Shown: piece by piece, positions 4,605-64,000 of the stretch
Layout: the number at the start of each line of letters is the position of its first letter
How positions within the stretch are numbered: position 1 is the stretch's first letter
Origin: a virus
Taxonomy: Duplodnaviria; Caudoviricetes
DNA length: 64,000 nt
Strand: one strand, 5' to 3'
IMG/VR virus record: IMGVR_UViG_3300037067_010056
Span: 2,975-66,974 of that record
Notes under the pieces: model-generated
Databases searched by the model: none
Told to the model about the DNA's origin: nothing
The model's input: the letters and a program-made list of their open reading frames with translations, nothing else
Position numbers and translations under genes: made by a program

Positions 4605-4943
4605 TCACTCCCGCTCCAAGTACCTCCAACCCCAACGACCCCAAGGACGAGGATACTCCGGCCTACTCGTCCAGCTCGGATAGACCGCATAGCGCGCCCG
4701 GTCAGGTACGTCCTTCCCATCAACCGTCGTCATCACCTTGACCACCACAGCTCTCTCTTCCTGAGGAAGCTCAAAGCCCGGACCGTCTGACCACAACCAG
4801 TCAACCAAGGGCACGTACTTGTGCACCCTCCCGCCTGTCGTCTCCCACGATACCGGCGCCTCCGTTCGAGCATCCAATAAACGCCCGTCAGGAGCTAGGT
4901 GCGCATAAAGAATCGGTAGTTGATTCAATGGGTCAATCGGCAT
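4605..4943 (-). CDS. Hypothetical protein
   Basis: ATG 10 nt after GGTGTA (4954-4959, minus strand). Confidence 0.65.
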   Translation of the reverse strand: MPIDPLNQLPILYAHLAPDGRLLDARTEAPVSWETTGGRVHKYVPLVDWLWSDGPGFELPQEERAVVVKVMTTVDGKDVPDRARYAVYPSWTSRPEYPRPWGRWGWRYLERE

Positions 4944-5013: not shown

Positions 5014-5223
5014 ATGACCCACCTCCCTCAGTGGCTAACCATCACCCTCCTCGTAGTGTCTGCCCTAGCCATACCCTCCGGTCTCTTCCTGGCTCACCTC
5101 AAAAACACCCGTGACTTCAAACGGTTAGGATTGTCAGGCAAGGACCTTCGAGCCCTGTACTGCTTCTACTTCCTCGGCAAAGGTCAACCGCCCAAGCCCA
5201 TCACCACCCCTGCTCAGGAGTGA
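5014..5223 (+). CDS. Small membrane protein
   Basis: One hydrophobic helix (LTITLLVVSALAI). Confidence 0.55.
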   Translation: MTHLPQWLTITLLVVSALAIPSGLFLAHLKNTRDFKRLGLSGKDLRALYCFYFLGKGQPPKPITTPAQE

Positions 5224-5622: not shown

Positions 5623-6135
5623 TTGGCAAGGGATCAACCGATGAAGTCACCTGGCAAAACCCACCTAGACCAACTCCTTAAGCTGGCTTCCAAAAACGCC
5701 ATCAACTCAGAAGTCGTCACCTGGCTTCAACGAAAGATGGACGAGGAGATCGTCTTCCCGCCACGCCAAGTCACCCTGGAAGCCCTCGACAGACTCATCC
5801 AAATGACCTCGGATGAGGTCGGATACCACGGTGGAACCCATGCTGAGGAAGTCTGCGAGCTGATCTTCGGCCAAGGTGACGACTCGGGCATGCTCCTCGA
5901 CATAGTCACCCTCGCTCGAATTGCTTTAGTCCACCTCCGAGGAACAAGCTTCCTGGTCCACGAAGTCTCGAAACAAGAGGAACCCCAGAAGAGCCTCGAA
6001 GAACTCAAAGAAGAGCTAGAGAAGGTCACCCAACAACTGCAATCCGCAGATTACTCCAAGAATACAACGAGCTTGGAAGTTCGCAGAGAAGAATTGGAGA
6101 ACGAGATCTCTGGGAGAGAAGGGCTACAGACATGA
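5623..6135 (+). CDS. Hypothetical protein with C-terminal coiled coil
   Basis: Follows a class A promoter motif; start uncertain (5623 or 5641). Confidence 0.7.
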   Translation: MARDQPMKSPGKTHLDQLLKLASKNAINSEVVTWLQRKMDEEIVFPPRQVTLEALDRLIQMTSDEVGYHGGTHAEEVCELIFGQGDDSGMLLDIVTLARIALVHLRGTSFLVHEVSKQEEPQKSLEELKEELEKVTQQLQSADYSKNTTSLEVRREELENEISGREGLQT

Positions 6136-6338
6136 AGACCATCCTAGTACCCATCAAGGTTCCGAACTGGCTGTACCGATTGGTCAAAGGCCTTCGCCGG
6201 TGCCCTTGCGGCCATGAGTGGCTACGCTACCAGTACCCGTCCTGCCCCATGTGCCGACTCAACACCATCAACCAACTGGTAGGTGAAGGCAACTGGGATG
6301 GCCTACGAGCCATCCCAAGTAAGGGTTGGAGATGGTGA
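6132..6338 (+). CDS. Small Zn-finger-like protein
   Basis: CPCGH...CPMC; ATGA overlap. Confidence 0.6.
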   Translation: MKTILVPIKVPNWLYRLVKGLRRCPCGHEWLRYQYPSCPMCRLNTINQLVGEGNWDGLRAIPSKGWRW

Positions 6339-6599
6339 AAAACAGGACTGTGGATACCAAAGTGCACATTTGGCAGTTGTAGCTAGGTGCCTTCCCAGGG
6401 GTCGTGTGGATAAGCCTTGACGTCCTGCAACCCATGAACCTTGCAGTACCGCTTGCCCTCGTCCTGAGCCCTTAGGTAAGCTTCCAGGGTCATACCTTGC
6501 CTGGTTGCAGCCTGCTTCAAGTACCGTAACTCAACCATCTAAGCCAATCACACTACCCTGGAATTACGGCCTTGTCAGAAAAATAACCGAGCCATAGAA

Positions 6600-7110
6600 A
6601 ATTTAAGGTCCAGGACCCTACTTTTGGGTCCCCTTTCATAGGGGGTGGGGGTCTGTTCGTACTCTTTCCCTGTCAATCACCGCGCCGAAGGCGCCCTGAG
6701 GGAACCCCGGAAATACCCTCCAGCGGTATAACAATCGTACGTGATCTGAATACGCCACGTAACCCCTGTCCGGACGACCGAAAAAGATAATGAATCGAAT
6801 TTACACTGTACACACAACCCACACCTAACAGGCGCTTCGCGCAGGTTAGGTGCACACTAATCACACAGTACACTGTGTTAACACTTACTAGTGCACTACC
6901 CACTCACACAATATACTGAAGATATGAGTGAGTGTGCACACAACTACCAGGCATAACGGGCGATGAGGTAGGTGAGCAGCACAAGAGTACGTGAGTATGA
7001 GCACTTATGGTGTACTGGGGGCATACTCATGACGTACCAAGAGCCGGGCGCGGAGCGCCATGCTTAGGTAGGTCAGTGGTACAGATAGACCAAGGGCGTC
7101 ACAACCCACT
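6600..7110. other. Non-coding palindrome-rich region A (candidate origin or control region)
   Basis: No credible ORF; several inverted repeats; shares 12- and 14-bp motifs in inverted order with 13200-13700. Confidence 0.45.
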
Positions 7111-9447: not shown

Positions 9448-9897
9448 TTGGGTTCGGGATACTCGGGCCCCGAACATCTGTCTCTGCTACTGGATGAGGA
9501 GCGCCTTCCGCGTACCGTGCGAGGACGTTCCCCCTGCCTTACTGAAAGAGTGACCGTGCCTGTTGACCTGGAGGAGTTCTGGAATCAAGTGCACCCGAGC
9601 CGGCTTATACATCGGTCGGATACGCCTACTGAAGAGGTTGATGACTTCATTGCCCCAGAGCTACTCATCAAACTCATTAGTCGATTGAAGGTAATACCAG
9701 ACCAACAACAAGAGACCTTCAATAATGATGAGAAGGGCCGAACGAAGGCCAAGATCTGTGTAGTACTCTCTCAGTTGATCCTGGGAGCTAAAGAGGGTGC
9801 TGACGTTGAAGATCAGGCCTATGACCTAATGCACCTACCTACAGACTACCTGCTAAGCACTGGTGAACGGATAATCCGCCTGAAAGGCAAGAGATGA
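9448..9897 (+). CDS. Hypothetical protein
   Basis: Overlaps the next gene; start uncertain. Confidence 0.65.
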   Translation: MGSGYSGPEHLSLLLDEERLPRTVRGRSPCLTERVTVPVDLEEFWNQVHPSRLIHRSDTPTEEVDDFIAPELLIKLISRLKVIPDQQQETFNNDEKGRTKAKICVVLSQLILGAKEGADVEDQAYDLMHLPTDYLLSTGERIIRLKGKR

Positions 9898-10196
9898 AGT
9901 ACCTCAAGCGACTGAAGAACGAGCTCCTGGACCTGACTGAGAAGCTGGCTGTGAAGGGCCCGCTGCCGGAGTATGTGAGCATCAAGAAACGCATTCGGAG
10001 GAACTCCATTCGAGTTGTGGTTGAGATGATCAAGATGGCACGGGCTCTTGATCAGGCCATAGACTACTATACCGATGAGAACGCTGGAGCCTGGGAACAC
10101 TACCTGCGTGAGTTGGAAGATTGGCTGAAGCTAGCCCCCTCAATGCCCCCAAAGCTGGTTGCGAAAAAGAACGAAGTAGTGGCAGTATCGGTGTAA
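9894..10196 (+). CDS. Hypothetical protein
   Basis: ATGA overlap. Confidence 0.7.
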   Translation: MKYLKRLKNELLDLTEKLAVKGPLPEYVSIKKRIRRNSIRVVVEMIKMARALDQAIDYYTDENAGAWEHYLRELEDWLKLAPSMPPKLVAKKNEVVAVSV

Positions 10197-10204
10197 TCGC
10201 CCTC

Positions 10205-10429
10205 ATGCATCTCAATACCTACAATCGACTCAAGGCCCTGAAGTACGAGAACCGTGGAACCCTTAGGATGGACCGTAGGCTTCAAGCGGCGGAGCGCCGA
10301 CGGGAGTTCGCGCACCACGCGCGCCTCTTTACTCGAAAAGGCCTCCTAGACATGCCCCGGTTCAGCCCGAAGTACTACGAGACTATGACCGCACTTCGAT
10401 TGAGTCGGTTCGGGATTCTTCCTGGTTGA
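10205..10429 (+). CDS. Small basic protein
   Basis: ATG 9 nt after GGTGTA. Confidence 0.6.
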   Translation: MHLNTYNRLKALKYENRGTLRMDRRLQAAERRREFAHHARLFTRKGLLDMPRFSPKYYETMTALRLSRFGILPG

Positions 10430-30687: not shown

Positions 30688-31127
30688 TGTCCAAGTTCGT
30701 TGCTGACTTAGCAGAGCGCATTGGCGTCCCCTACCTAGCGGAGCGCGACCACGAGAAGCTACTTGGGCATCGATTGAAGGAGGTTCCGAAGGAAGAAGCT
30801 ATCAAGCAGGGACTATTCCCTACTCGTCGCTTCCGCTCTCCTACTGGTGAGATACTCGAAACGGATGAGTTCCCCACCATGGACCATGAGCAGCTGACCG
30901 AGGAAGTTTGGACAAGAGATCATTGGCCAACTGACCCAAACAACACGGTCTTGGAAGCTCTGCAGAAGGTCCCCCATGGGATCATTGCGATCTACTACCA
31001 CATGACCTGTCTGAACATCGTTTTGGTGACCCCGGAGCGTGAGCTAATTGGTATCCGGAGAACGGCTCTCTATGATAGGAATGAAGTTCAGGCTCTGAAC
31101 CGATTGAAGAAAGCTGCAACAGCATGA
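30687..31127 (+). CDS. Hypothetical protein
   Basis: TAATG overlap. Confidence 0.7.
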   Translation: MSKFVADLAERIGVPYLAERDHEKLLGHRLKEVPKEEAIKQGLFPTRRFRSPTGEILETDEFPTMDHEQLTEEVWTRDHWPTDPNNTVLEALQKVPHGIIAIYYHMTCLNIVLVTPERELIGIRRTALYDRNEVQALNRLKKAATA

Positions 31128-56678: not shown

Positions 56679-57107
56679 ATGTCAACTGCTGAAGATATTG
56701 CACCCCTCATAGCTAGTAACCTCAATGTTCAGAAGGCGATGAGAAGGTATGCTACGATTCGAATAGACCTAGATGACTTCGATGGGGATCGACGAGGGAT
56801 AGCTGAGGCTTTGGATGAGGCGGAGATCGCCCTTGTCACTGAGATCCTCTTGTGTCGACTTGATGCTGAGCACCGAGTATCACAACCTATTCCGAAGTTG
56901 AGCTTCACTAAGAAGGGAATACTGAAAGGATTTACCTGCTGTAAGAACGTTGCCCAAGGGCAGGAACCGTTCAAAGCTTGTGGTAAAAAAGTCACTAACC
57001 TGTATGCTCACAACGGGCACGTCAATGAGGGACTCTGCGGATACTGCAAGGATCACAACTACGTCTGTGGGGTTCTACTATGGAGCCAACCTAAAGAGGA
57101 TGTATGA
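56679..57107 (+). CDS. Hypothetical protein with Cys-rich C-terminus
   Basis: Directly follows moeB. Confidence 0.7.
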   Translation: MSTAEDIAPLIASNLNVQKAMRRYATIRIDLDDFDGDRRGIAEALDEAEIALVTEILLCRLDAEHRVSQPIPKLSFTKKGILKGFTCCKNVAQGQEPFKACGKKVTNLYAHNGHVNEGLCGYCKDHNYVCGVLLWSQPKEDV

Positions 57108-57355
57108 AGACTGATGTCATCCCACTTCGATGGGTCGAGGACACTGAGAAATGGGCCAAGCTAGTCTTCGGAGGTGGGATCACCAAGAGAGAGCTGACCT
57201 ACCTGGGCGCTACGATCCATGCTGACTTCGAGTTGAGCTACGAGAGTCTAGCCCCATACGTGACCAAGGTACTTGACCTGGCAGCTCCGTTGGAGGGGGC
57301 TGGACTAACCATCAAGCTGATTGAGATCAAAGGTGGAGAGGTAAAGGTCTGGTAG
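57104..57355 (+). CDS. Hypothetical protein
   Basis: ATGA overlap. Confidence 0.7.
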   Translation: MKTDVIPLRWVEDTEKWAKLVFGGGITKRELTYLGATIHADFELSYESLAPYVTKVLDLAAPLEGAGLTIKLIEIKGGEVKVW

Positions 57356-57357
57356 AC

Positions 57358-57600
57358 TCAACCCTTCATGAAGTTGGCGGGGCTGTCTTTTCGGACCTTG
57401 TGTTTGATCTCGTCTCTGACCTTGCGCTCTTCAGCGGGTGGTGGCGGGTCATCAATGGGCGTTGCTGGAGCTCCACAGTTCCTGCAGACACCCCCCTTCA
57501 CTCGGAGGGGCGCATGGCAGTAGAAGCACTTGTCACGTCCCATTCCAGCCTGGAGGGCTCTGGAGGCTACTCGCTTGATGATGTCCAACCTACTGATCAT
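57358..57600 (-). CDS. Small double-Zn-ribbon protein with N-terminal RVASR motif
   Basis: KRVASRALQAG; CFYC, CRNC. Confidence 0.7.
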   Translation of the reverse strand: MISRLDIIKRVASRALQAGMGRDKCFYCHAPLRVKGGVCRNCGAPATPIDDPPPPAEERKVRDEIKHKVRKDSPANFMKG

Positions 57601-57677
57601 ACTCCACCACCCATACAGTTTGGTATAAGTTTCTTATTTTATCGCACCGCTCGACCCCTCGCGGGATAACTCGCTAT

Positions 57678-59150
57678 TCAATGAACCACTTGAGGCAGCC
57701 GCGACGTCTAAGTCGTCCAAGCTTTCTTGTACGTGCTCCAACCCCCATACACAATGAACCACTGAGCCACACCTTCCGTGGGATTTGTAGATCAAGTCGA
57801 GATTGCTCCAATCCCCCATACACAATAAACCACTGAGGTATCAACCTCCCGATTAGGGGTTGAGGGAAAATCTACATCTAGCTCCAATCCCCCATACACT
57901 CAAAGAACCACTGAGGCCAATCACCGCTATTCTGAAGCGCTCCGCCATACGTGCTCCAACCCCCATACACAATGAACCACTGAGGCCAAAAAAACCTCAT
58001 TGCGCTTTCTTGAAGCACTTATTGCTCCAATCCCCATACACTCAAAGAACCACTGAGGCGTACTTCTAGCCGCGAGGTCAGGAGAGCTACTCTCGCTCCA
58101 ATCCCCATACACAATAAACCACTGAGGCGCTGTCGCCAAAGGAAAAGTCCAAGAAGCCGCCAACCTCCAATCCCCATACACTCAATGAACCACTGAGTCT
58201 GCGAAAACTGGCAGTCCGATGGCCAGTCACTAGAGGCTCCAATCCCCATACACTCAAAGAACCACTGAGGCCCTCGCGCCAGGGCTGACATTGCATTCCG
58301 TCACATTCCTCCAATCCCCATACACAATGAACCACTGAGGCACAATCGTCACGTCGTGATGGCGACCTGATCAGAGACTCCAATCCCCATACACTCAAAG
58401 AACCACTGAGGCCGAGTACTTGGCGCGGATGACCCACGCAAGACGAGTACCTCCAACCCCCATACACTCAAAGAACCACTGAGGCCCGACATCGGCAATC
58501 CCGACAAGGCATCCGTCCTCAAGCTCCAATCCCCATACACTCAAAGAACCACTGAGGCCGTCCATCATCTCAGGAAGAAGCGCTCGGGAGCACAGTCTCC
58601 AATCCCCATACACTCAAAGAACCACTGAGGCCCAACCACAAGGGTCCCCATGCGAGACCTCCGACGAATGCTCCAATCCCCATACACTCAAAGAACCACT
58701 GAGGCCTGCTTCTTTGTCTTCCTGTTCGTAGGAATCCTCGGCTGCTCCAATCCCCATACACTCAAAGAACCACTGAGGCTTCCAGAGGTTCCGCCGAATA
58801 TAGCGAGAGCCTCATGGCTCCAATCCCCATACACTCAAAGAACCACTGAGGCCCCATCTAGGCAGTTACACCGCCGGCACTCGGTTCCTGAGCTCCAATC
58901 CCCATACACTCAATGAACCACTGAGGCTACCGATCACAATTCTACGTAGTCTATACCAGAGAATGGCTCCAATCCCCATACACTCAATGAACCACTGAGG
59001 CGCAAGCGATTGAAGATAAGCCACCAACAGGTGTTGGCTCCAATCCCCATACACTCAATGAACCACTGAGGCCGCAGTCATAAACAACCCGCCAGGTACG
59101 ATTGGACTTGAACCGCTCCAATCCCCATACACTCAATGAACCACTGAGGC
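57678..59150 (-). CRISPR. CRISPR array: 20 repeats (consensus 36 bp) plus 1 partial terminal repeat, 20 spacers of 35-42 bp
   Basis: Plus-strand consensus GCTCCAATCCCCATACACTCAA(A/T)GAACCACTGAGGC. Degeneration at the low-coordinate end places the leader above 59150 and implies minus-strand transcription. Confidence 0.97.
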
Positions 59151-59409
59151 CCTCAGTATGAGATCCTCAGTAGTTCTATACACTTACAATACTACATGCG
59201 AGAGGGTCTGCATAACCGTCTCAGCATGAGTCCTACCTGACTCCCGGTAGATCAGTGAACCGTATAGGTGATACAAACCACCTGGTTACTTCTGACTACA
59301 TGGGAATCAGATGCAAGATTTTCAGAGAACAGTCTCTCTAGTGGAAGAGAGTGCAATGCGAGCGGGTACAAGGTCTAGTATATCACCGAACCGCTCGCAA
59401 GATAAGTTA
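59151..59409 (-). promoter_or_regulatory. CRISPR leader containing anti-repeat elements
   Basis: CCTCAGT at 59151-59157 and CCTCAGTAGTTCT at 59165-59177 are inverted relative to the repeat end. Confidence 0.65.
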
Positions 59410-60147
59410 CTAGGCAGCTTTCGAATCATTCTTCCTAGAACCACCTCGTCTAGCCGACCTAAACCCATCAACCAGAATTTGGAGCTTCCGGTTCTTATCC
59501 CCAGAGATTTCGAGCTTACTCTTCAAGGACGCAATCCTCTTCTTAAGCTTCTTGATGGTCTCGTTCGCTTGGACTAGTTCTTCCTTGGCCGTGGTTCTGG
59601 AATCCATCCTTACTCTCTTTGTCATTGATCCCGGGTTGGCTTCCCCAACTTCAGCTATCAGACGGATAACCTCCAACCTCAACAAGAAGGACTTCTTGTT
59701 GGTAGTCATGTACTCAACTACCTTGTCGAAACCTTTTGTGTGGAACTTCGTCTGAAGCTTCTTTGTGACAAGAACCGCCGCGCTCAGACCAATCTTCTTC
59801 AGCACGTTCAATGGGGTTCGTGCAAGGGCTACCTTGCAATCCCCATATCGTGTTGGGTCATAGATGTCACGTTTCCGGAGGAAGGTTGCAAAACTCCACT
59901 TAGTGCTATCCGACTCATTCCGCCAAATGGAATCCTCGATCTCCAACTGGTAGAGATAGAGTACAATACGCTCCTCATTGACCTCAGCAGCTACCTTTAG
60001 GCGAGTTAGCTCCTTTAGGACTATAGCCCAACTCTCCCCCTCCACCAGCTCTGGAGCTTTGCTGTCACGGATGAGATTCTTGAGACGTACCTCTTCTAGT
60101 TGCGTTTGCATCTTTAGTGGTCTTTCTGGTAGGTGCTTGGACTTCAA
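59410..60147 (-). CDS. Basic cas-linked hypothetical protein with C-terminal coiled coil
   Basis: Lies between cas gene and leader and overlaps the cas 3' end; start 60147 or 60111. Confidence 0.8.
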   Translation of the reverse strand: MKSKHLPERPLKMQTQLEEVRLKNLIRDSKAPELVEGESWAIVLKELTRLKVAAEVNEERIVLYLYQLEIEDSIWRNESDSTKWSFATFLRKRDIYDPTRYGDCKVALARTPLNVLKKIGLSAAVLVTKKLQTKFHTKGFDKVVEYMTTNKKSFLLRLEVIRLIAEVGEANPGSMTKRVRMDSRTTAKEELVQANETIKKLKKRIASLKSKLEISGDKNRKLQILVDGFRSARRGGSRKNDSKAA

Positions 60148-62038
60148 TTGAAGGTGCTTCCGATTCGGAAGTTTCCAGATTAGTTGTTTGATTCTTACGG
60201 GCTCTGCTGTCTCGGATCACCTTCCGGAAGCTCTCACTCACCGCATCGTAGTCATACACCTTGCTCGGCGTTCCAGCTCTGAAGGTGGCCCAAGCGGTCA
60301 AGAAGTCTTTGGGGATCTCTTGCTTACACTCGTCGTTGTTGCAAATGTAGTTGCTGGATATCTTGTCAAACTCCATCTTCCCTTTCAGGCACGATGGGCA
60401 TAGAGAAGTTCCAACCTTGAGTACTCGGTAGTTGATCCCCGCCTTGGTCAAGGCCCAGATAATCTTCTCACGAAGTAGTGCACTCGGGAACCGCCTCAGG
60501 ATCTTCTCAATGCGCTTGTCCGGGTGATGCGCGAGGTGGGTGCTCCAATCATTGAGCAACACTTCAGCATAGGGCTCTCGAGTCTGAACCCAACCTTCGT
60601 GAGTCAAGGTCATCCCGCTCGCCAGTCTAGCGACTAAGGAACCTTGTTGCTCACAATAGCTCTTGGTGAACAAAGCTTCCTTCTCTGAGACCTCCGTTTT
60701 GATCCTCAAGAATCGATTTCGACCGTGACCCCGAGCTCCACGTCCTTGATGATTCAGGTGTTGAGCCATGCTACTCCGTTTGGCGTCGAAAGCCAACTTG
60801 GTCTGGAGAAGGCTGTCTTGGACCAGATCGTAGGTGAACACCTCGTTTGGATCTTTCCCTAACGCCTTGAACTGTTTCAATGACTTGGCTGTGGGCTTAT
60901 GAGGTGTCCGCCGACCTTCGAATTGAAGCCGATGAGCAAAGTAAGACTTGCTGTCGTCTACCCTACCAACACCGCGACCATTACTAGCCCACAGGCGTAG
61001 GATTGAATCCAGACCAGGGCAGACTACGAGAGTGTCCACGCCTTCTTTTGTGCTTGGTCTTGGGTAGGAGTAGGACACCTTAAGTTGGAACCGATAACGG
61101 TCATCATCCCATACCAGGCGAGCACCCCCTATCGTGTACTCACTTCCCGGCTTCAGGATCTTGTGAAGGGTTGACCATTGAGAGTTGCCTCTTGCAACAG
61201 CTTTTCCTGTCAAGTGGGGTGACCGGCCATTGACAGCTGCTCGTAGAGTAAGGATTACATCGAGATCGCGTCCGCATAGCACTAAGTCAAAGCACTCTCG
61301 AGGTAATGGGAGGCTCTTAGCCTTGAACCAAGGTGGAGATTGTTCAGCCTCTTTCTTAAGCCAGGTCCTCATCTTATCTGAGGCTTGTTTAGAAGCAAAA
61401 GCGGTCAAGCTCCCCGAAAGAGGGTTGTCACTTAACTTGTTACGAGTAGCACCCTCTTTCGCCTTCTTGCCCTTCGAGGTCTTGAGTTGGACGCGCTCTA
61501 CCGTAGCGCCGATAGCTTCAGCCAAAACTGGGTATGGCTCTCTACCTTCCTCTTTGAGGAGTGATCTGACTACAGCTCGTTGCCCTTTAGTGACCAACTG
61601 GATCACCTCGAATAGTTCTGGGTAGTGATCTACCGGCTCCTCCTTGGGCTTGGCTTCATCTTGAGTAGCTGTCTCTTCTGCTCCCTTCTTAGGCTTCTTT
61701 TTCTTGTGCTTCTTCACCCACTTCTGGTGGGCTACTTGCTGACCTTCAGCGGCTTCGCCCTCTGTTTTAGCATGCCAGCTCCAAGGTTCGAGTTCGAGTG
61801 TCACTGATCCTGGGATACGGAAACAACACTCAATAGCGTCTTGTGATCGCTCATCCATCCATTCAGAGCGAGGGCGACCAATGAGCTTGTTCCCATCCTT
61901 GACCTGCCACCCCTTAGAGGTCTTGTTGACATAAGGCTTTTCAACCCCTCGATTCCTGAGTTCCTCAACTAACCATAGTGAAGTGGCGGCTACAACGGGG
62001 TCTACTTCAGCTTTTGGCTTTGTACTAGGCATACACAT
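60065..62038 (-). CDS. cas12f: Cas12f/TnpB-like type V effector, predicted nuclease-dead
   Basis: WED motif LHKIL..EYTIGGARLV..RFQLKVSYSY; RGHGR; TSLCPSC...CNNDEC Zn finger; RuvC-I VVCPG (D to C), RuvC-II LLND (E to N), RuvC-III KD intact. Confidence 0.8.
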   Translation of the reverse strand: MCMPSTKPKAEVDPVVAATSLWLVEELRNRGVEKPYVNKTSKGWQVKDGNKLIGRPRSEWMDERSQDAIECCFRIPGSVTLELEPWSWHAKTEGEAAEGQQVAHQKWVKKHKKKKPKKGAEETATQDEAKPKEEPVDHYPELFEVIQLVTKGQRAVVRSLLKEEGREPYPVLAEAIGATVERVQLKTSKGKKAKEGATRNKLSDNPLSGSLTAFASKQASDKMRTWLKKEAEQSPPWFKAKSLPLPRECFDLVLCGRDLDVILTLRAAVNGRSPHLTGKAVARGNSQWSTLHKILKPGSEYTIGGARLVWDDDRYRFQLKVSYSYPRPSTKEGVDTLVVCPGLDSILRLWASNGRGVGRVDDSKSYFAHRLQFEGRRTPHKPTAKSLKQFKALGKDPNEVFTYDLVQDSLLQTKLAFDAKRSSMAQHLNHQGRGARGHGRNRFLRIKTEVSEKEALFTKSYCEQQGSLVARLASGMTLTHEGWVQTREPYAEVLLNDWSTHLAHHPDKRIEKILRRFPSALLREKIIWALTKAGINYRVLKVGTSLCPSCLKGKMEFDKISSNYICNNDECKQEIPKDFLTAWATFRAGTPSKVYDYDAVSESFRKVIRDSRARKNQTTNLETSESEAPSIEVQAPTRKTTKDANATRRGTSQESHP

Positions 62039-62058
62039 CTCTCATGCTGGTGTAGGGA

Positions 62059-62300
62059 GCCTTCGAGCCGTAGTCCGATGGCAATTGACTTGTTGAGAAC
62101 ATGCCATTTTGACCAACTCCAACTCCACAACCCCTACATTCAGTGGATCAAAGCAGAAAACTGGACCAGATTGTGAGAATGTATGGGGTCTGACCACTCT
62201 GGGTCAGACTTAGCTGAGTGCATGATAGCCTCGCCTTAAGGGCTATGGAGGTGCCCTAATAACACACTATCTGGTCCAGTTTTCTGCTTTGTTCCGTGAT
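62059..62300 (-). ncRNA. Candidate structured guide-scaffold/tracr-like RNA upstream of the cas gene
   Basis: 23-bp perfect IR (62149-62171/62269-62291), two internal hairpins, anti-repeat 62174-62188, degenerate repeat 62123-62143; strand inferred. Confidence 0.55.
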
Positions 62301-62306
62301 TCACAG

Positions 62307-62335
62307 ACTATCTCACGAGTTGCCTGGACTTGCAA
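62307..62335 (-). promoter_or_regulatory. Putative sigma70-type promoter TTGCAA-N17-GATAGT
   Basis: Lies between the upstream terminator and the 5' arm of the structured element. Confidence 0.35.
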
Positions 62336-62343
62336 CAGAAAAT

Positions 62344-62382
62344 GACACAGGCCTGCTAATTTATCATTAGCAGGCCTGTGTC
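62344..62382 (-). terminator. Rho-independent terminator of 62394-62660
   Basis: 17-bp perfect stem, 5-nt loop, followed by ATTTTCT on the minus strand. Confidence 0.75.
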
Positions 62383-62393
62383 GAAGGTCAGGA

Positions 62394-62660
62394 CTACCAC
62401 CGGACATCGGCAGGGAGTCGCTCATAAGCCCGTTGGCAATCATCCTCGTACTTCATCGCAGTAGAGATTTTGCCTTCTAGCCGGAGGCCGATGGCAATTG
62501 ACTTGTTGAGGGCGTAGCAGGCCAAGACTTCAACGATCTTATGAGCATCCGACCGATTCCCTACGATCTCAGAAGCCTTATTCCTAGTGGTGACATGCCA
62601 CTTGGACCAGAAGGACCGTAGTTCGTCTTGGTTCATCGAGTCGAAGTTCGGAATCTCCAT
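62394..62660 (-). CDS. Hypothetical protein; a 39-nt internal segment is copied at 62059-62097
   Basis: ATG 6 nt after class A motif. Confidence 0.75.
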   Translation of the reverse strand: MEIPNFDSMNQDELRSFWSKWHVTTRNKASEIVGNRSDAHKIVEVLACYALNKSIAIGLRLEGKISTAMKYEDDCQRAYERLPADVRW

Positions 62661-62734
62661 GCCACCTATTACGCCCCAACTCGGAGGATCTCAACCAACT
62701 TGTTACGAATGATCTTTCGGTGTAAAGTCCACGC

Positions 62735-63103
62735 ATGGGAAATCTTGAAACCGTCACCCCAGCAACTCTGGATGCCCACTTGAGCGTTCTCGTGGATTCA
62801 GAGCCTGATCTTGGGACCATCTCGCACTTGAATCACGAGGGCGACACCACGTACACCTGGGACAGGAAGAACAAGGCTGAGTGTGAAGCGGCCCAGGCCC
62901 ACTTTGAGGCTCTGAAGGCCAAGGGGTTCCTCGTATTCAAGGTCAATCGTCTTGGCGGTAAGCAGAAGAAGCCGACAACGGGTGAATTTGATCCTAAGGC
63001 TGGCAAGTACATCTACACGGCCCCCGAGGATGCCCCGGAGATGGCTACTGAGTTTGACCCTCAGGCCAATTATGTAGCAACCCCAGCGATGCAGGGCGGA
63101 TGA
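62735..63103 (+). CDS. Small protein ending in di-glycine (PAMQGG)
   Basis: GDTTYTWD..E.EAA..F..LK.KGF..EFDP.A repeated twice; GGTGTA 10 nt upstream. Confidence 0.8.
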   Translation: MGNLETVTPATLDAHLSVLVDSEPDLGTISHLNHEGDTTYTWDRKNKAECEAAQAHFEALKAKGFLVFKVNRLGGKQKKPTTGEFDPKAGKYIYTAPEDAPEMATEFDPQANYVATPAMQGG

Positions 63104-63124
63104 TGCTATAGTGGTGAGGTAATC

Positions 63125-63442
63125 ATGAAGATCAGGTTCAGAACAGCCAATAATCGAAGAACCTTTCACATCCAGGATGGTGGACGAGTATTCCTACCTC
63201 AATGGCGCATGCGCCAGATCCGGTGGGAAGAGGCGATGCTAAACTCGATTGCCAAGCGTGAGAATCTCATTGGTACGCTTCATCACGGGTTCTGTGGTTG
63301 TGGATCTATTGGCTGCCAGGGGACCCCATACATCCCCCAGAACGCTGATGCTCGACCTGAAGGGTGCACTGAGGAGCCAGTGGTCAAGAATCCCCCCAAG
63401 GTTGACCCGGAACGAGAGTGTCCTCACTTCGCATCGAGGTGA
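63125..63442 (+). CDS. Hypothetical protein with Cys/His motif
   Basis: HHGFCGCGSIGC. Confidence 0.65.
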   Translation: MKIRFRTANNRRTFHIQDGGRVFLPQWRMRQIRWEEAMLNSIAKRENLIGTLHHGFCGCGSIGCQGTPYIPQNADARPEGCTEEPVVKNPPKVDPERECPHFASR

Positions 63443-63481
63443 GCCATTCATCTCCACATCCATTATCTTGAACCTGGAGAG

Positions 63482-64000
63482 ATGCCTCTCTATGAGTTCG
63501 GAGTAACACGCTCGTATCAGTGGTATGGGGCTGCCGTCGGGCAGTATGGTGGCCACTGGGAAGTCAGGGGAAGTATCCAGAGGGAGCGCAAGACTCTCCT
63601 CAGTCTAGAGGTTGACGAGCCTCTCACTCTGTTCGTTGATGAGCTGACGAACCGCCTTCGAGAGTTGGAGTTGGTTGACCTCGACATCGGACCTATTGGC
63701 GAGGACGGTATTCCAACCCTCGATTGCGTTCGTAGAGGGCAGGGTCCTTTTGATGTTGATGGGACTCTCTTACTTGCTATTCGTTCTGTGTGCTCTATCG
63801 ATGGGGTTACTGACTGGGATAACTATAATGGGGGTCGATTCGCTGACAGACACCAAGGCGTCATCCTCACAGGTGGGCTGGCATTCATCGAGGGGATCAA
63901 GGTTGGTACTGACCTCGAAGGGCAGGACCCAACCCGCGTGATCGAACAGACGTGTCTTATGCTGGCCGGAAAAGACTTCGACCGTAACACACCTAATCTC
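63482..64000 (+). CDS. Hypothetical protein, truncated by window end
   Basis: Open from ATG 63482 (MPLYEFGVTR...) to 64000 with no stop. Confidence 0.65.
   Translation, partial: MPLYEFGVTRSYQWYGAAVGQYGGHWEVRGSIQRERKTLLSLEVDEPLTLFVDELTNRLRELELVDLDIGPIGEDGIPTLDCVRRGQGPFDVDGTLLLAIRSVCSIDGVTDWDNYNGGRFADRHQGVILTGGLAFIEGIKVGTDLEGQDPTRVIEQTCLMLAGKDFDRNTPNL

Follow-up and report, generated by a model that had tools for sequence, protein, structure and literature searches.

A predicted hairpin between the leader and the newest repeat of a phage-borne, Cas12f-like CRISPR array

The window analysed here is a 64,000-nt stretch of Caudoviricetes DNA (positions 2,975 to 66,974 of IMG/VR record IMGVR_UViG_3300037067_010056), and all positions below are those of the window unless another locus is named. 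The record itself is a 67-kb virus fragment with an estimated completeness of 13%. It carries one phage-borne CRISPR locus, type V-F-like and read on the minus strand, at positions 57660-62400. Read 5' to 3' on that strand, the locus consists of a tracrRNA, a Cas12f-like effector gene, a gene for a 245-aa partner protein, a leader and the array. A strong terminator (62382-62344) closes the gene that precedes the locus, and the region 57000-64000 had no match to any Rfam family. The main features are the following.

~62125..62300, minus strand: upstream structured RNA, the conserved tracrRNA of the clade, recognised by its anti-repeats, by compensation in the related locus L003 and by a homologue in the L013/L014 subfamily
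60065..62038, minus strand: Cas12f-family effector, 657 aa, recognised by profile matches and by the TNB domain of its relatives
59410..60147, minus strand: partner gene, 245 aa, between effector and leader, overlapping the 3' end of the effector gene
59151..59409, minus strand: leader, 259 nt, strongly structured and conserved
57660..59150, minus strand: CRISPR array, 20 recognisable 36-nt repeats and a decayed terminal repeat
59115..59150, minus strand: first repeat, leader-proximal and newest, 36 nt

The effector alone had no Pfam or NCBIfam match. A profile of 25 relatives matched the Cas12f structures 8j1j, 7wju and 9i8y (E = 4e-32 to 1e-30), and the Cas12f TNB domain was found in relatives of the effector. 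No Asp or Glu is invariant among the 25 relatives. The RuvC-I and RuvC-II positions of the 657-aa effector are not acidic and the third motif alone keeps an Asp, so it may not cut DNA. Judged by these residues and by its array, the effector is probably a non-cutting, DNA-binding protein whose array is still acquiring spacers. An AlphaFold model of it was too poor for use (pLDDT 38.7). The 245-aa protein encoded downstream matched no known family. A homologue occupies the same position in locus L013 (6688-7419; 29% identity over 108 aa, E = 7e-13), and the protein looks like a conserved partner of this effector clade.

The effector belongs to a family with six proteins in a collection of 5.8 billion. 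We compared the window with three related loci, L001, L002 and L003, whose effectors are 95%, 100% and 71% identical to that of the window, respectively. Three independent lineages entered the comparison; the family members P0005, P0007 and P0008 (57-80% identical) stood outside it.

The direction of the array could be read from its repeats and spacers. Repeats degenerate toward the 577xx end, and the terminal one is without its 3' half. The window and L002 have two spacers in common, both at this far end of the array, and all of their leader-adjacent spacers differ. The restriction of spacer sharing to the far end and the degenerate repeats found there indicate that new spacers enter at 59150, which makes 59151-59409 the leader. 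Within the repeat, the 3' half, adjoining the following spacer, is the conserved half, and the indels of old repeats lie in the 5' half. In the distal array of L001 the 5' half is wholly different while the 3' half is the same. Given this free variation among old repeats and the divergence seen in L001, the conserved handle does not include the 5' half. The repeat-guide form of the crRNA is supported by this distribution of sequence change. This is the form expected of Cas12 systems, and in a repeat-guide array the extraneous repeat is the decayed last one.

The repeats of these loci also record some of their history. A shorter variant, with 2-4 nt missing from the 5' half and a constant 3' half, makes up the older repeats at 57730-58340 and those of L003 at 5880-6960. 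In L001, the main array is followed by a second run of eight repeats (9818-10350) that have the 3' half in common with it and an unrelated 5' half. This second run suggests an evolutionary replacement of the 5' half, with the tracr-binding half retained. L003 also contains an orphan repeat of the old short type (4797-4822) directly after the stop codon of the partner gene, so that the whole L003 leader is flanked by repeats, like an oversized spacer.

The upstream RNA contains two anti-repeat segments, one of 12 nt (62177-62188) that is complementary to repeat nt 17-28 and one of 5 nt (62246-62250) that is complementary to nt 31-35. Two differences in the L003 anti-repeat compensate for changes in the repeat of that locus. 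An nhmmer search with a profile of the upstream RNA detected a homologous element in the distant subfamily L013/L014 (E = 5e-7), the anti-repeat of which matches the quite different repeat of its own locus over nt 17-27 and by a further 7 bp to the repeat end. From these complementarities, we take the tracrRNA to be this RNA upstream of the effector, predicted to bind the spacer-proximal half of every repeat. A further upstream segment, 62140-62156, was considered as a conserved partner for the 5' half of the repeat and rejected, as the pairing was not significant and is weak in L003, at -10.4 kcal/mol. When the tracrRNA was cofolded with fragments of the pre-crRNA, even the well-supported pairing with the 3' half was not recovered, and the cofolds were uninformative on competition for the first repeat.

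Several further observations concern the surroundings of the tracrRNA. A 39-nt stretch in the gap between the tracrRNA and the effector gene (62059-62097) is a 92% copy of 62472-62510, which is part of the neighbouring upstream gene; the copy is missing in L003. About 25 nt upstream of it on the minus strand lies a degenerate 3' half of a repeat (~62125-62143). In L013/L014, the tracrRNA (5041-5129) lies inside the annotated 5' end of the effector ORF, and the database proteins apparently translate through the RNA. A candidate tRNA-like T-arm sequence was seen at ~4900-4950 of L014, just upstream of the L013/L014 effector gene.

At the other end of the locus, where the leader meets the array, the last 26 bases of the leader are predicted to fold onto the first 13 bases of the first repeat in the minus-strand transcript. 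The elements of this hairpin are as follows.

59165..59176, minus strand: distal leader arm, flagged earlier as an anti-repeat, a 12-nt complement of nt 2-13 of the first repeat
59152..59162, minus strand: apical mini-hairpin of leader bases only, with a 4-bp stem and a 3-nt loop, which holds the proximal inverse copy
59138..59149, minus strand: 3' arm of the hairpin, nt 2-13 of the first repeat

The main helix has 12 bp, one of them a U:G pair (59172/59142), and joins leader bases 59176-59165 to repeat positions 59149-59138. It is extended by the apical stem, in which 59162-59159 pair with 59155-59152 (4 bp). The predicted hairpin has 12 + 4 bp in all and contains a small internal loop. An earlier note, made from the letters of the window, had pointed to three motifs on the plus strand around this junction, namely ACTGAGG at 59143-59149, its inverse at 59151-59157 and a 13-mer at 59165-59177, and all three are in place. 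The 12-bp pairing with one G:U that it described for the minus transcript was reproduced and exceeds chance. It also correctly assigned this pairing to the 5' half of the repeat (nt 2-13) and an element at 62174 to the 3' half. Since the tracrRNA occupies nt 17-28 and 31-35, the hairpin covers the half of the repeat that is left free. By complementarity, then, the leader is the predicted cis partner for this other half, and of the first repeat only. The earlier note placed the proximal inverse copy (59151-59157) correctly, but its role had to be revised. Pairing of this copy with the repeat was rejected because the loop would be only 1-2 nt, which is too short; in every fold it forms the 3' arm of the apical stem instead.

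The hairpin is more stable than expected by chance. The 55-nt element folds at -25.2 kcal/mol (z = -5.27), with none of 200 shuffles as good, and the duplex between leader and repeat 5' half, at -21.5 kcal/mol, was reached by one of 1000 dinucleotide shuffles. The probability that nt 1-13 of the first repeat are paired with the leader is 0.92, against 0.26-0.36 for shuffled leaders, and it was reached by none of 100 shuffled leaders when 60 nt of leader were folded and by 3 of 100 when 100 nt were folded. For internal repeats, the corresponding pairing probability has a mean of 0.21 with 60 nt of upstream sequence and a mean of 0.51 (maximum 0.84) with 100 nt. On the minus strand of the window, the leader 12-mer has a single occurrence outside the array. 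The 12-bp helix is also present in the fold of the whole leader, which has a z-score of -5.31, and in the alignment fold.

We looked for signals that would place the hairpin in a transcript. No sigma-70-type promoter was found in 57500-62800, and the interval from the leader start to the hairpin has no terminator and no sigma-70-like promoter. A role of the hairpin itself as a terminator was rejected, there being no U-tract behind it. A 10-nt extended -10-like motif occurs three times in the window, where 0.4 occurrences are expected:

59377-59386, minus strand: extended -10-like motif at the leader start
62307-62316, minus strand: extended -10-like motif before the tracrRNA
30847-30856, plus strand: extended -10-like motif

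Two of these copies precede non-coding RNAs of the CRISPR locus, and by its placement the motif may be a promoter element. We infer that transcription of the leader runs through the hairpin element.

Conservation in homologous leaders had been set beforehand as a test of the pairing, and the hairpin is indeed predicted in L001, L002 and L003. In all four loci it lies at the homologous place, with energies of -22.7 to -26.6 kcal/mol and z-scores of -4.2 to -5.7, and was equalled by no shuffle. The leader arm pairs with the repeat at the homologous position at -19.9 to -22.9 kcal/mol. Pairing probabilities across the loci are 0.91-1.00, a level reached by at most one in 100 shuffled leaders in L001-L003. 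The leader arms of L001 and L002 differ from that of the window at two bases, which turn a U:G pair into C-G and an A-U pair into G:U; both changes keep the pairing only in the minus-sense RNA. Contigs from peat and groundwater metagenomes carry the same two pair-preserving variants, and four DNA runs aligned to this stretch showed L001-type variants only.

The more divergent L003 still forms 12 bp, although its leader arm has undergone four changes and its repeat arm two. One pair is compensated, from G-C to A-U, matching a C-to-T change of the repeat; another pair is gained at the loop end and one is lost at the base, which shifts the helix by one step. The apical stem is invariant in the four loci, and its loop has a single change, in L003. 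Over the alignment, 96.9% of pair cells are standard, with one pair compensated and two varying on one side, and the newest repeats of L002 carry an uncompensated change at the terminal pair. With four sequences the covariation is not significant, as 140 of 500 shuffles reach the observed score. Mean column identity, with the 71%-identity locus included, is 90% in the hairpin region compared with 81% over the leader and first repeat, and hardly any change affects the 12 leader bases adjoining the junction. Being part of a repeat is enough to explain the conservation of the repeat arm. The leader arm, for its part, could be kept for some other reason, as the whole leader is conserved too.

Outside this family we did not find the feature. 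The 97-nt leader of the L013/L014 subfamily showed no significant sequestration of the first repeat. A search of IMG/VR for more lineages by repeat pattern yielded nothing new, searches of IMG/VR with two conserved RNA motifs gave chance matches only, and protein patterns searched in species genomes found nothing. The hairpin is so far confined to one small family. This distribution bears on whether it has any function at all. It could be the leftover of a partial inverted duplication of the repeat, its similarity among loci arising from quasi-palindrome template switching or reflecting short divergence. The statistically weak covariation, the close relationship of the window, L001 and L002, and the lack of the feature in the related subfamily L013/L014 are what such a leftover would lead one to expect. 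We nevertheless consider it very unlikely, as L003 retains 12 bp despite its four leader-arm and two repeat-arm changes, and as the hairpin region is better conserved than the leader and first repeat as a whole.

The near-invariance of the 12 bases next to the junction also suits a signal that acts at the level of DNA. Spacer acquisition occurs at the leader-repeat junction, and Cas1-Cas2 or a host factor might recognise, or bend the DNA at, the inverted copy of the start of the repeat that lies 15 bp inside the leader. If one protein read both half-sites, these would co-vary as the two arms of a helix do. A need for the repeat 5' half only in adaptation, at the first repeat, would likewise account for its decay in old repeats and its lack of tracrRNA pairing. 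We know of no integrase that requires an inverted repeat copy in the leader. No Cas1 gene was found in the record of the window, nor in three phage records related to it, of which two are 99-100% complete, so that an integrase could only come from the host. The two leader variants of L001 and L002, moreover, are mismatches in DNA but wobble pairs in minus-sense RNA, and the apical mini-stem has no obvious role in DNA. A DNA-level signal thus appears quite unlikely to us.

A role in RNA could take a different form, which the earlier note had put forward as a cis-tracr. The leader would be a scaffold of the tracrRNA type, and the newest spacer would come as a ready-made, natural single guide. 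In engineered Cas12f sgRNAs, the 3' end of the tracrRNA is joined to the 5' end of the repeat. The geometry of the leader is similar: its 3'-terminal anti-repeat runs into the first repeat, as an equivalent of the 'stem 5' of such guides, and stem 5 of the SpCas12f1 sgRNA is a repeat:anti-repeat duplex (PMC12255294). The leader is thus a structured RNA directly upstream of the array and co-oriented with it that ends in an anti-repeat, and its structure and conservation are unusual for a leader. In the middle of the leader, the entire 3' half of the repeat has a potential partner in 59293-59315 (-22.3 kcal/mol, a value reached by 25-31 of 1000 shuffles). A distant phage relative has a comparable layout. 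Rctr197k (L021), a virus in GenBank, has a leader with a collinear, full-length anti-repeat 42 nt before the first repeat.

In two related loci, however, the mid-leader pairing is weaker or disturbed. The homologous site of L003 reaches only -14.0 kcal/mol, a value attained by 142 of 1000 shuffles, the complement in L001 has a disruptive change, and in the predicted folds 59293-59315 is buried in helices internal to the leader. The tracrRNA that is conserved in the clade lies upstream of the effector instead: it covaries with the L003 repeat and has a homologue in L013/L014. A profile of the leader, by contrast, matched nothing beyond its own close family, with L013, L014 and L021 among the loci that gave no match. 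The answer to whether the leader is a tracrRNA is therefore mostly no, and we regard a natural single guide as unlikely in the window. The Rctr197k locus deserves mention in its own right. It spans 119281-119773 of KX853510.1 and has a 467-aa Cas12f relative labelled 'transposase-like', a 237-nt leader and a four-repeat array. By its complementarity, its leader anti-repeat looks like a leader-encoded tracrRNA that is not annotated as such.

The reading that we favour, with moderate confidence, is that the leader-repeat hairpin of the pre-crRNA shapes the processing or stability of the first, newest crRNA. The leader arm would be the 5' arm of a hairpin in the minus-strand precursor transcript, where it pairs with the spacer-distal half of the first repeat (nt 2-13). 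Because tracrRNA pairing is restricted to repeat nt 17-36, the hairpin would not block guide formation. The tracr duplex would stop at nt 17 and the hairpin at nt 13, leaving two helices on the first repeat and three unpaired bases between them. The 5' flank of the newest crRNA would thus be double-stranded to nt 13 and would have a 3-nt single-stranded gap before the tracr-bound handle. Internal repeats would have a spacer in front and a 5' half that is fully single-stranded. The hairpin might then fix the site at which the first crRNA is cut or trimmed, that is its 5' boundary, or might protect or stabilise it, and the level of the newest guide would be set through such hairpin-defined cutting or protection. 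It might also keep the 5' half of the first repeat from other pairings and the leader from interfering.

Two further ideas about what the hairpin does are more speculative, and we give the pair of them together only a slim chance. In one, each crRNA would keep the spacer-distal repeat half at its 3' end as a second functional tag, for another factor such as the 245-aa partner protein to read, and the hairpin would silence the copy that is preceded by the leader. If this were true, it would amount to extraneous-RNA suppression in a Cas12-type, repeat-guide system. Alternatively, by analogy, the hairpin may be the type V counterpart of a leader-driven prioritisation of the newest spacer.

What gives the hairpin its interest is that structures of this kind have until now been linked to a single problem, namely the extraneous crRNA that the first repeat of guide-repeat arrays yields (II-A and several Cas13 systems). 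That problem does not explain a first-repeat hairpin in an array that is Cas12f-like, repeat-guide and dependent on a tracrRNA. A functional hairpin here would mean that leaders tune crRNA biogenesis in type V as well; it would act on the repeat half that stays out of the tracr duplex, and the system concerned is phage-encoded and probably does not cut. It also provides a testable handle on how pre-crRNAs of the Cas12f type are cut, a question that is poorly described.

The closest known structures are found in other CRISPR types. Leader-repeat hairpins with a function have been described in VI-B and related Cas13 systems (Migur et al. 2026, PMC13187072) and in type II-A (Liao et al. 2022, as summarised in PMC13187072). 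In both II-A and VI-B, which are guide-repeat systems, they stop the first repeat from yielding an extraneous crRNA, and a repeat-guide VI-A control had no leader-repeat hairpins (PMC13187072). As in those systems, leader RNA just upstream of the array is predicted to fold onto the first repeat and to do so better than scrambled leaders. The fold recurs in the three related loci, without significant covariation, and not in L013/L014. The first repeat alone is affected here too, a limit that follows from new repeats being copied from the first one. The systems differ in the form of the crRNA, which is guide-repeat in II-A and VI-B and repeat-guide here, and in what is occluded. The published hairpins block a part of the repeat needed by the tracrRNA or by Cas13, whereas the one in the window covers the half that the tracrRNA leaves untouched (nt 2-13). 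Owing to these differences in crRNA configuration and occlusion, the hairpin is not a member of the II-A/VI-B class by mechanism, and because the array is repeat-guide, the published rationale of suppressing extraneous crRNAs does not apply. The form of the hairpin is thus already known from II-A and VI-B, and what is new is its presence in a repeat-guide, Cas12f-like locus.

With V-F1 Cas12f systems, the locus shares an effector of the Cas12f family and a structured RNA that ends in an anti-repeat, followed by a short loop and the 5' part of the repeat, which is the geometry of stem 5 in the sgRNA. It differs from them in where the conserved scaffold with the spacer-proximal anti-repeat is encoded, which is in front of the effector gene and not in the leader; the leader supplies only the spacer-distal complement. 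Nuclease-dead Cas12f homologues adjoining CRISPR arrays have also been reported (Hoffmann, Wiegand et al., PMC13472631). Like these, the effector in the window has no conserved RuvC triad, an adjacent array and a guide at the 3' end of the scaffold. The characterised dCas12f proteins are C-terminally truncated and come without a tracrRNA-like species (PMC13472631), whereas the effector described here is longer (657 aa) and phage-borne, with a separate tracrRNA and a 20-spacer array that is still acquiring.
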